Positions 1-2,180 of a stretch of 26,903 bases of DNA are shown one piece after another. The notes below the pieces were generated by a model, which saw only the letters and a list, made by a program, of their open reading frames with translations, searched no databases and was not told the DNA's origin. Position 1 is the first letter of the stretch. Each line of letters starts with the position of its first letter. Origin of the DNA: a virus (taxonomy: Duplodnaviria; Heunggongvirae; Uroviricota; Caudoviricetes). Location: positions 1 to 26,903 of IMG/VR virus record IMGVR_UViG_2917413769_000006; one strand, given 5' to 3'. The translations under genes were made by a program, and so were the position numbers.

Positions 1-273
1 ATGAAAAACAGAGAATCCAATGTCAGCAGCCTGCAAGAATTAGCCGATTTTAACGTCAGCTATTCCCTGCTCACAAACGAAGTCTATCTGTCTGCATCAT
101 TCATCGATAACATGGCCTGCATACCACATTGGCCAGTAAAGGAATTCCCAGATCAGTTTATGTGTGATCAGTTTATGTGTATCTCACGAACTCGCGCAAA
201 AGAACTGATAAATGAGTTACAGAAGGCAATCAACTACATGGATGCAGGTATTGATAACTCCCATGGTAGGTGA
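1..273 (+). CDS. hypothetical protein; 3' end interrupted by IS insertion (stop codon supplied by the IS terminus)
   Basis: 90-codon ORF from the first base of the window; its stop TGA (271-273) is the first 3 nt of the IS left end. Contains a perfect in-frame 15-bp tandem duplication (151-165 = 166-180, DQFMC twice). No recognisable family. Confidence 0.4.
   Translation: MKNRESNVSSLQELADFNVSYSLLTNEVYLSASFIDNMACIPHWPVKEFPDQFMCDQFMCISRTRAKELINELQKAINYMDAGIDNSHGR
151..180 (+). repeat. perfect 15-bp tandem duplication gatcagtttatgtgt x2
   Basis: Direct reading: 151-165 and 166-180 are identical; in frame within ORF 1-273; each copy carries a GATC site. Confidence 0.95.
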
Positions 274-334
274 TGTAGCCCCCAGAAACACCGGACAGTA
301 GCTGTATCTCCAGATAAGAGATAGGCTTGAATAT

Positions 335-685
335 ATGTCTAACACTAACGCCAATTTTGAGATGACCGGGATCCTGTTAGGGCAAGAAGTCCGTAAACGT
401 AAAACTCCTCAGGAGAAAATCGCCATTATCCAGCAGACGATGGAGCCGGGTATGAATGTCTCCCATGTCGCCCGCCTGCATGGTATCCAGCCCAGCCTGC
501 TGTTTAAATGGAAGAAGCAATATCAGGAAGGCAGCCTCACCGCCGTTGCGGCCGGAGAGGAAGTCGTTCCTGCTTCTGAGCTTACAGCTGCTCTGAAGCA
601 GGTCCGGGAGCTTCAGCGCCTTCTGGGCAAGAAGACGATGGAAGTTGAGATCCTGAAAGAAGCGGTGGAGTACGGCCAGTCGTGA
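335..685 (+). CDS. IS3-family transposase OrfA (HTH DNA-binding, InsC-like)
   Basis: 116-aa ORF with ATG at 335; strong resemblance to IS2 OrfA; ends TGA 683-685 immediately before the orfB start. Confidence 0.9.
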
Positions 686-687
686 AA

Positions 688-1569
688 ATGGATAGCGCAC
701 GCGCCCTTGTTGCCAAAGGACGGGGAATAGCCCTGGTCAGCCGCACCATGGGCGTGTCGCGTGCGCAGCTGTCACTGCGAGTTAACCGTTCTGCCGACTG
801 GCAGGACAGGCGCTGTAACCGGCGTAATGACGAAGCAGACGCTGAAATACTGACGGATATCCTCGATATCATCAGCGATATGCCGAGTTATGGTTATCGA
901 CGCGTGTGGGGCATCCTGCGCAAGCAACGTCGCACTGAGGGAGAGCCACCGGTGAACGCCAAACGGCTTTACAGGATAATGAGCGAGCATAACCTGTTGT
1001 TGTTGCATGACAAACCAGAGCGACCGAAGCGTGAACACAAGGGAAAAATCGCGGTGGCAGAAAGCGATATGCGCTGGTGTTCAGACGGCTTCGAGTTCGG
1101 CTGCGACAACGGTGAAAAACTGCGGGTGACGTTCGCGCTGGACTGCTGCGACAGAGAGGCCATAGACTGGGCAGCGAGCACGGGAGGCTACGACAGTTCG
1201 ACCGTACAGGATGTGATGCTGAGGTCGGTGGAAAAGCGCTTCGGCGACAGGTTGCCGGACACACCAGTGCAGTGGTTGACGGATAACGGTTCAGCGTATA
1301 CTGCGCATGAAACGCGGAGGTTCGCCAGAGAGCTGAATCTTGAGCCCTGTACAACAGCGGTGAGCAGTCCGCAGAGTAATGGCATGGCCGAACGGTTCGT
1401 GAAGACGATGAAAGAAGACTATATCGCGTTCATGCCAAAACCGGATGTGAGAACAGCCCTGCAAAACCTTGCAGCAGCGTTCACGCATTACAATGAAAAC
1501 CACCCGCACAGCGCGCTGGGATATTACTCTCCGAGGGAATACCGGCGGCAGCGGGCATCGTTAACTTAA
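688..1569 (+). CDS. IS3-family transposase OrfB (DDE integrase-like catalytic domain, InsD-like)
   Basis: ORF in the -1 frame relative to orfA; ATG at 688 (MDSARAL...) with GTG at 682; rve-type motifs ([21 protein letters not shown]). The A6G slippery motif that IS2 uses for the OrfAB fusion is not present here (sequence is CAGTCGTGAAAATGG). Confidence 0.9.
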
Positions 1570-1627
1570 GATACAAAAGCGGTCCGGAGATAGCGGGTCA
1601 AGATCATAACTCCCATGGTAGGTTCAA

Positions 1628-1999
1628 CTAGCTTTCAACGTCACACATAGCGACAGGAAATTTTTTGTACAGCGTAGATATTCCAACATCGTAGATAATT
1701 GAAACCTGCTTTTGCTCCATTCCATTTTTTATCAATCGTCCCATTTGCGCCCATTCTTCACTACTAAACTTTGGGCGCCTTCCACCAATACGCCCTTCAG
1801 CTCGTGCGGCTGCTAAACCAGCCCGGGTGCGTTCGACTATAAGCTCCCTTTCCATTTCTGCCAGTGCACCCATTACATGAAAGAAGAATCTCCCCATCGG
1901 CGTACTCGTATCGATGCTATCCGTCAGGCTCCGGAAGTTAACCCCTTTCTCCTGCAGTTCCTCCACTAACACAACAAGATGTCGCATGCTGCAACCGCA
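1628..1999 (-). pseudogene. DNA invertase (Pin/Gin/Hin-type serine recombinase), 5'-truncated: catalytic N-terminus missing
   Basis: Minus-strand ORF MRHLVVLVEELQEKGVNFRSLTDSIDTSTPMGRFFFHVMGALAEMERELIVERTRAGL... is near-identical to the C-terminal two-thirds of Pin-family invertases as I recall them; resemblance stops about 4 codons upstream of the first Met and an in-frame stop follows, so roughly 65-70 N-terminal residues including the active-site Ser are absent. Confidence 0.85.
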
Positions 2000-2180
2000 T
2001 GAACTTTACCGCGCGCAGGGCTTCCCGGAGTGGTACATCATCGACCAGGACTATCGGGGCAAGAAGTACGCGAAGGACAAACAGGTTGCGCGCTGCGGTA
2101 ACGCTGTTCCTCCGCCTTTTGCTGAGGCATTGGTGAGGGCTAATTTACCTGAACTATGCGTGAGCAGGGAGGCTGCGTAA
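1988..2180 (+). pseudogene. C-terminal fragment of a DNA (cytosine-5)-methyltransferase
   Basis: Translation ...HELYRAQGFPEWYIIDQDYRGKKYAKDKQVARCGNAVPPPFAEALVRANL* matches the conserved C-terminal end of C5-MTases (GFP..., GNAVPPP motif X). Only about 60 codons of MTase-like sequence are present; the upstream part of the ORF is unrelated, so this is a remnant. Confidence 0.7.

Follow-up and report, generated by a model that had tools for sequence, protein, structure and literature searches.

The locus analysed here raises the question of how an insertion sequence (IS) of the IS2 subgroup could produce its transposase when the slippery run of IS2 is missing from the junction of its two genes. 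In IS2, the A6G motif is the experimentally used slippage window, and the OrfAB fusion is the functional transposase (PMC3219604). The window, that is, the entire 26,903-nucleotide stretch of viral DNA that was analysed, carries a single copy of the related element. A sequence-only reading had noted that there is no A6G at the orfA/orfB junction, that orfA ends at TGA 683-685 and that orfB has its own ATG at 688, all of which is confirmed by direct reading. At issue is whether this junction is characteristic of the IS type or is a lesion of this particular copy.

The limits of the element are defined by database matches, by the alignment of its ends and by flanking direct repeats.

271-1606, plus strand: insertion sequence, ISEcl1-like, 1336 bp, TGATGTAG...CAAGATCA, IS3 family, IS2 subgroup; limits from BLAST matches
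271-317, plus strand: left terminal inverted repeat region, imperfect, beginning with TG; ends aligned across 19 copies
1561-1606, plus strand: right terminal inverted repeat region, ending with CA, with one private change (T1581G); from the end alignment
255-270, no strand: left copy of a 16-bp target-site duplication, TAACTCCCATGGTAGG; exact direct repeat abutting the IS end
1607-1622, no strand: right copy of the 16-bp target-site duplication; exact direct repeat abutting the IS end

BLAST matches at approximately 96% identity begin at position 271 and stop at 1606 in 72 records from E. coli and 1479 from plasmids, and the element is found at about this identity in 1826 plasmid records (mostly Klebsiella) and 166 E. 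coli genomes altogether. Exact protein matches indicate that the surrounding sequence is a prophage and that it lies on a contig of 300 kb from Escherichia sp. E1130; no close relative of this prophage was found in the phage collection. The element belongs to the IS3 family by its transposase profile and DDE/rve core: the NF033516 model, which has a cut-off of 160, scores 200.6 bits with OrfB and 269.3 bits with the reconstructed fusion. The gene layout typical of the family, with orfA in frame 2, orfB in frame 1 (-1) and a helix-turn-helix (HTH) domain in OrfA, is present, as are imperfect inverted repeats of the form 5'-TG...CA-3', the arms of which are 291-317 and 1561-1587. The earlier designation of the element as IS2-like is valid at the level of the subgroup only. 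The IS2-specific models score below their cut-offs (PRK09409, 422 vs 597; PRK09413, 168 vs 229), DNA identity to IS2 is about 70%, compared with 96% to ISEcl1-type copies, and A6G is absent, so this is not IS2 itself. Judged by the approximately 96% identity to the widespread copies and by the name given to one protein in its 90% cluster ('IS3-like element ISEcl1 family transposase'), the element is ISEcl1-like.

The reading frames of the window copy and the relevant stop codons are as follows.

335-685, plus strand: orfA, cut to 116 aa (131 aa in relatives), with an HTH_Tnp_1 domain
683-685, plus strand: premature stop TGA, created by the private change C683T; ancestral codon CGA (Arg), as in relatives
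682-1569, plus strand: orfB, -1 frame, start GTG 682 or ATG 688, 293-295 codons; HTH_21, rve and rve_3 domains intact
728-730, plus strand: TAG, the orfA stop in intact relatives, from the alignment to these relatives

OrfA matches the Pfam family HTH_Tnp_1, with the RefSeq start of orfA in relatives being the ATG that corresponds to window position 362, and OrfB matches HTH_21, rve and rve_3. The DDE residues of OrfB are D135 (1084-1086), D201 (1282-1284) and E237 (1390-1392). The junction of the two genes reads CAGTCGTGAAAATGG, in codons CAG TCG TGA AAA TGG, and the overlap between orfA and orfB is only 4 nt (GTGA) compared with approximately 45 nt in relatives. Direct reading shows that the -1 frame is open from 649 only; reading frames are exact, so that chance plays no part in these observations. 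Scans of window positions 240-760 for promoters and terminators found none.

Comparison with other copies of the element indicates that the TGA is exceptional and the absence of A6G is not. An alignment of the window with two E. coli copies shows that their junction is TCG CGA AAA TGG and that their orfA is 15 codons longer, extending to the TAG that corresponds to 728-730. Two broader surveys were carried out. A scan of 185,579 species-representative genomes, in which the first two bases of the codon at 683-685 were left free, identified 30 loci in at least 15 genera, with 80-97% identity to the window IS; the codon is CGA in all 30, although, given that the search pattern fixed AAAA and the flanks, this count is informative for the two free bases alone. 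The other survey, of 80 loci in viral contigs, relied on OrfB peptide patterns and was not selected on the junction. Here, TCGCGAAAATGG is present in 19 of 19 ISEcl1-like copies with a readable junction and in one ISEc48-like copy, IS2 and its close relatives have GCAAAAAAGTGG, and two other groups have A7G or A7. The sequence TCGCGAAAATGG is also found in ISEc48 on an E. coli chromosome (76% identity by BLAST) and in two K. pneumoniae plasmid copies. Altogether, the CGA AAA junction is shared by all relatives retrieved, more than 50 copies from at least 15 genera at 76-99.9% identity, and RefSeq annotates relatives with a 'programmed frameshift'. An apparent 'CCA AAA' variant, suggested by a RefSeq fusion protein (...QSPKMDS), was dismissed after inspection of the plasmid DNA, which reads TCGCGAAAATGG; the proline results from an automated join that re-reads a base. 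CGA AAA T without A6G is thus the normal state of the ISEcl1/ISEc48 lineage.

In contrast, apart from the window, TGA is found solely in two Logan assemblies that represent the same locus, from runs SRR8835199 and SRR6148301, which are 100% identical to the window and have T at 683; none of the more than 50 other copies has this stop. The exact 116-aa OrfA is likewise restricted to this prophage locus, except for three genes (L005-L007) that were rejected as additional TGA copies: their contigs end within the gene at position 682, before the codon in question. The closest relative, and the only near-identical one, is L124, a contig from another sample in which the element has inserted elsewhere and is flanked by a separate 16-bp duplication. 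Compared with window positions 271-1606, it shows a single difference in 1336 positions, C in place of T at 683; its OrfA accordingly has 131 aa, and its OrfB is the same protein as in the window copy. Most of the substitutions that separate the window copy from its relatives are synonymous (pN/pS 0-0.2), which implies that the lineage was under purifying selection until recently and that the stop is recent. Eleven changes are private to the window copy: 7 are synonymous, one is C683T, two are substitutions within orfB, and one lies close to the right end. Thus, as the comparison indicates, the lesion of the window copy is a private C-to-T nonsense change rather than a missing slip window. This copy of a known IS type is defective and has decayed in an ordinary manner. 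The change also removes the conserved 15-residue tail of OrfA (131 to 116 aa). Across IS2, the A7 group and the ISEcl1-like lineage, changes in this tail are mostly synonymous in frame 0, and the tail is therefore probably functional as protein.

The candidate components of a frameshift signal without A6G, numbered as in the window, are listed here.

685-688, plus strand: A_AAA tetramer, presumed -1 slip site of the lineage, at the same position as A_AAA_AAG of IS2; behind the TGA in the window copy
667-670, plus strand: GGAG, possible Shine-Dalgarno-like stimulator, 14 nt 5' of the slip motif, suggested by reading of the sequence
695-703, plus strand: 5' arm GCGCACGCG of a 9-bp stem, beginning 6 nt 3' of the slip motif; paired in 15 of 15 IS2-subgroup sequences
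758-766, plus strand: 3' arm CGCGTGCGC of the 9-bp stem; paired in 15 of 15
705-725, plus strand: inner hairpin, 705-711 with 719-725, whose loop holds A_AAG (715-718); one pair shows a GC-to-AU change in IS2

When the codons are aligned in register, GCA AAA AAG TGG of IS2 corresponds to TCG CGA AAA TGG of the lineage, and the claim that there is no run of A's to slip on does not hold, with A_AAA lying in frame 0 at the very position of the IS2 A_AAA_AAG heptamer. The ISEcl1/ISEc48 clade would thus retain only the A-site half of that heptamer, its first A being the third base of CGA. Tetramers of this kind are employed in the IS1 and IS3 families: A_AA.A is 'well represented' among their elements, and six tetramers clearly exceed the background, with 0.26-5.6% frameshifting in the presence of a strong downstream stimulator, in the order A_AAG >> U_UUC > U_UUU > C_CCU = C_CCC > A_AAA (PMC4066793). 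The same study scanned 30 nt upstream of frameshift motifs for Shine-Dalgarno-like elements (Sharma et al. 2014; PMC4066793). By this analogy, A_AAA at 685-688 is presumed to be the slip site of the lineage, and its efficiency is presumed likewise; OrfAB would be made via -1 ribosomal frameshifting at A_AAA (CGA AAA U), stimulated by a conserved branched stem-loop. In all relatives, the motif is read in frame 0, but in the window copy UGA precedes the AAA codon.

The 9-bp, G+C-rich stem is common to IS2, IS2-like elements, ISEc48 and all ISEcl1-like copies, and its spacing fits the upstream site A_AAA, the distance of 6 nt being within the 4-10 nt expected for a stimulatory RNA structure. Among 15 diverse sequences, it shows one compensatory CG-to-UA change and three CG-to-UG changes; the whole structure contains two compensatory pairs, one in the stem and one in the inner hairpin. 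The A7G group, outside the 15-sequence alignment, also has the CG-to-UA double change. Paired cells amount to 99.2%; sliding the partner columns lowers this to 25-66%. For 689-775, the fold is only modestly better than that of shuffled sequences (z = -1.8). The stem columns are mostly invariant and lie in doubly coding sequence, and the covariation support is thin. We infer, with moderate support, that the stem acts as a frameshift stimulator. Several other sequences in the region were considered. A second tetramer, A_AAG at 715-718, is held by most ISEcl1-like copies, down to 81% identity, and is also behind the TGA in the window copy. G_GGC at 625-628, the sole motif in a frame 0 scan from 560, is useless, given that the -1 frame has a stop after it, at 646-648. 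Positions 675-682 and 795-802 are complementary over 8 bp, which was taken as chance; this pairing is absent from IS2 and would be inside the ribosome during slippage. The sequence-only reading also allowed for an alternative slippery site upstream in orfA; a scan of the part of the -1 frame that is open before the stop (649-682) found no Z_ZZN or heptamer motif.

Elements with the A_AAA junction (hereafter, A4-type) evidently have been mobile, in the evolutionary sense. One identical A4-type isoform occurs at five loci and another at four, three loci in each set have their own, distinct 15-16-bp duplications, and a single E. coli genome contains 15 places that match the element. Identical copies at 3-4 different sites with different target duplications indicate that the lineage moves. 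The earlier reading had envisaged relatives that naturally possess this junction and are active: relatives without A6G that are mobile do exist, but they lack the TGA stop.

Against this background, the likely effect of C683T can be outlined. The codon directly 5' of the slip codon changes from CGA to UGA, and frame-0 termination would occur one codon ahead of AAA reaching the A site. OrfAB should not be made because the tRNA-Ser on UCG, which would occupy the P site at the UGA, cannot re-pair with GUC in the -1 frame, AAA would never be in the A site, A_AAG is located farther downstream, and there is no other slip motif. Most likely, then, OrfAB is absent from the products of the window copy, OrfA would still be made, and OrfB possibly as well. 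OrfB could be produced on its own by termination-reinitiation, with GUG 682 overlapping the UGA (GUGA) and AUG 688 located 2 nt after it. In IS2, however, the OrfA part of OrfAB contributes an HTH (first 60 residues) and a coiled coil (73-100), both required for binding and transposition (PMC3219604). OrfB alone, without these N-terminal parts needed by IS2 OrfAB for end binding, would not be expected to act on the ends. Low-level readthrough of the UGA followed by slippage may occur. The proposition that the copy yields only separate OrfA and OrfB accordingly fares well in its outcome, with OrfAB probably not made, but not in its reason, which is the C683T stop and not the absence of A6G, normal in this lineage. 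The ends of the element look usable, with only one private change (T1581G), and mobilisation by a transposase supplied in trans could in principle take place. The account as a whole, according to which C683T stops ribosomes before the A_AAA site of the lineage, with loss of OrfAB and a copy that is most likely non-autonomous, is assigned a probability of about 85%.

The alternatives differ in which of these elements they call into question. One could regard the IS type as a kind without any frameshift window, in which OrfA and OrfB are made separately or which is transposition-defective, and the junction of the window copy by itself invites this view, with neither A6G nor any other heptamer present and the -1 frame ATG 688 directly after the stop. 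The relatives make it very improbable: all of them have CGA and an orfA that continues to TAG, about 45 nt into orfB, they carry A_AAA and the conserved stem in the place of the IS2 signal, identical A4-type copies have inserted at several sites, and RefSeq annotates a programmed frameshift. A more limited modification would place the real slip site of the lineage at A_AAG (715-718), three codons before the orfA stop, in which case the window copy would still be blocked by the TGA. Of the tetramers, A_AA.G causes by far the most frameshifting in E. coli (PMC4066793), and its retention in ISEcl1-like copies down to 81% identity adds to its appeal. This placement is nonetheless unlikely. The motif is absent from ISEc48 (ACC TTC GGA) and IS2 (CCC GGG), both of which share the stem and the upstream site; it is part of the inner hairpin loop and does not precede a stem by 5-9 nt; and the experimentally established site of IS2 is the upstream one.

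The copy might also give some functional transposase in spite of the UGA, through readthrough and slippage or through reinitiated OrfB complementing OrfA, or it might have been kept as a regulator that supplies OrfA/OrfB inhibitors. The stem-loop is intact and orfB is undamaged, and an AUG 2 nt after the UGA with a GUG overlapping it is an arrangement that favours coupling. Yet the P-site UCG is unable to re-pair with GUC after a -1 shift, the HTH and the coiled coil needed in IS2 are missing from OrfB on its own (PMC3219604), and the variant occurs at one locus only, all of which renders such a function quite improbable. Least credible of all is that the copy is really intact and owes its T at 683 to faulty assembly or sequencing. 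A single-base difference from an otherwise identical element does call for this suspicion. The same base, however, appears in the assemblies of SRR8835199 and SRR6148301, which are separate data sets although perhaps of the same strain; with T in two further read sets, the TGA cannot be an assembly error of one data set. The NCBI assembly apparently called neither the 116-aa nor the 131-aa OrfA, given that the exact 116-aa protein has Logan sources only.

The target-site duplication is a separate feature of this element. Duplications in the IS3 family are stated to be 3-5 bp long, and those of the IS2 subgroup 5 bp (PMC10045372); the 16 bp of the window element do not match this range. Within the clade, the duplications are 15 or 16 bp in 18 further independent insertions, including L124 and the ISEc48-like L062 (16 bp). 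As a control, IS2 and its relatives at 77-100% identity were analysed in the same way, which yielded 5 bp in 34 of 41 cases. The difference between 15-16 and 5 bp corresponds to about one additional helical turn. Discrete classes of 5-6, 15-17 and 24-29 bp have been noted in the IS481 and IS1202 families but not in IS3 (PMC10045372). The long duplications are solidly observed; they are a departure in one property and leave the protein-based family assignment unchanged. It can be proposed, tentatively and at somewhat less than even odds, that the ISEcl1/ISEc48 clade (down to 76% identity) departs from IS2 in two linked ways, namely, A_AAA in place of A6G and duplications of 15-16 bp in place of 5 bp. 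If so, an IS3-family transpososome would be able to attack target phosphates approximately 15 bp apart. Should the 15-16-bp duplications not already be catalogued, this would be the more interesting result, extending the helical-turn length classes to the IS3 family, and the transposases of IS2 and of the clade, 64% identical, would form a pair suitable for asking what sets the duplication spacing. A literature search for frameshifting or duplication length in ISEcl1 returned only resistance-plasmid papers that name the element, which is chiefly known as a neighbour of mcr-8.2.

By itself, one nonsense mutation that disables one copy of a very common IS is of little consequence. There is a lesson for annotation: the absence of A6G in elements of the IS2 subgroup should not be read as a sign of a defect because a whole successful lineage appears to work with A_AAA and a conserved stem. 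That lineage includes ISEcl1 copies that adjoin mcr-8.2 and copies on more than 1400 Klebsiella plasmids. In addition, the window copy and L124, one base apart, constitute a ready control for the dependence of transposition on OrfAB.

Among the known systems, ISEcl1 (Enterobacter cloacae; common on Klebsiella plasmids) is the closest, with the same length of 1336 bp, the same ends, the same gene layout and the same target duplications of 15-16 bp; the copies to which the window element is about 96% identical are assigned by RefSeq and NCBI to the 'IS3 family' or the 'ISEcl1 family'. The window element belongs to a sub-lineage that has diverged by about 4% from every E. coli and plasmid copy in the collections, and it differs further in carrying the C683T nonsense codon. 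ISEc48 (E. coli), at 76% DNA identity, shares the junction TCG CGA AAA TGG, the stem, with a compensatory CG-to-UA pair, and the 16-bp duplication seen in L062; the downstream A_AAG is absent from it. Similarity to IS2 (E. coli) is readily detectable at the protein level, with OrfB of the window matching the IS2 TnpB model at 1e-126 and OrfA matching the TnpA model at 1e-49, and the -1 layout of orfA and orfB, the position of the slip site and the 9-bp stem 6 nt downstream are as in the lineage. The differences from IS2 are an identity of only about 70% for DNA and 64% for OrfB, the A_AAA_AAG heptamer of IS2 as opposed to the A_AAA tetramer of the ISEcl1-like lineage, a left end that begins with TA in IS2 and with TG in the window element, and duplications of 5 bp in IS2 compared with 15-16 bp in the lineage.

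The remaining comparison is with elements that employ tetramers. IS3 (E. coli) uses A_AAG with a pseudoknot; the motif of the present lineage is the weaker A_AAA, and its predicted structure is a long-range stem around a hairpin. More generally, IS3-family tetramer elements combine Z_ZZN slippage with a downstream RNA structure and an orfA stop nearby (PMC4066793), which is the arrangement proposed for this lineage. Tetramer slip sites in the IS3 family are thus already documented, and the only unusual part of the system described here is the natural pair of elements that differ by one base.

In the IS2 subgroup, the slip motif ranges from a tetramer, such as the presumed A_AAA motif of the ISEcl1-like element in the window (685-688), up to runs of seven A, because the same position is occupied in other lineages of the subgroup by A7 (GCA AAA AAA TGG) or A7G (CAA AAA AAG). 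These lineages, found in the viral contigs L064-L066, L055, L067, L071 and L079, encode OrfB proteins that are 66-68% identical to the OrfB of the window. Downstream of the slip site, the following structure can be formed:

695-703 with 758-766: long-range stem of 9 bp, G+C-rich, enclosing a hairpin
705-711 with 719-725: the enclosed hairpin

The stem, which begins 6 nt past the slip site, and the hairpin are common to IS2, ISEc48, ISEcl1-like and A7G-type elements, with a few compensatory changes, and together are likely to act as a frameshift stimulator shared across the IS2 subgroup. No description of the 9-bp stem was found in the literature searched.

The DNA from just after the start of the slip motif encodes, in frame 0, the C-terminus of OrfA:

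686-730, frame 0: C-terminal tail of OrfA, 15 aa, as encoded in the ISEcl1-like lineage

Ten residues of this tail are near-invariant in IS2, the A7 group and the ISEcl1-like lineage. The changes are mostly synonymous in frame 0 and non-synonymous in the -1 frame, a pattern which suggests that protein-level constraint is stronger on the OrfA-specific tail than on the OrfAB linker translated from the same DNA. The window copy lacks this tail. The RefSeq fusion proteins of ISEcl1-type relatives outside the window (P0019 and P0021) read ...QSPKMDS... at the junction; the underlying DNA encodes ...QSRK followed by MDS..., so that the proline is not a real residue but a product of the position picked for the automated join.

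The element lies among gene debris at one edge of the prophage late region, with the following neighbors:

1-273: ORF of 90 aa, ending in the first three bases of the IS (TGA)
1628-1987, minus strand: serine recombinase/invertase remnant, 5'-truncated, 119 aa, with the C-terminal part of the Resolvase domain and HTH_7
about 1979-2180, plus strand: C-5 cytosine DNA methyltransferase gene remnant, 88% identical to phage mEp237

The latter two remnants adjoin each other. The 90-aa ORF has no Pfam match and was seen in Escherichia sp. E1130 only; if the IS were absent, it would run two codons further (...SHGRFN*).

The window copy is flanked by a target duplication:

255-270 and 1607-1622: target duplication

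Duplications of 15-16 bp accompany 19 independent insertions of the ISEcl1/ISEc48 clade, including this one (window; loci L002, L008, L013, L034, L042-L062, L123 and L124). In published summaries, IS3-family duplications measure 3-5 bp (PMC10045372), and for IS2 and its relatives the identical procedure yielded a 5-bp duplication in 34 of 41 cases. The clade thus differs from IS2 by approximately one helical turn, a step that resembles the discrete duplication classes described for IS481 and IS1202.
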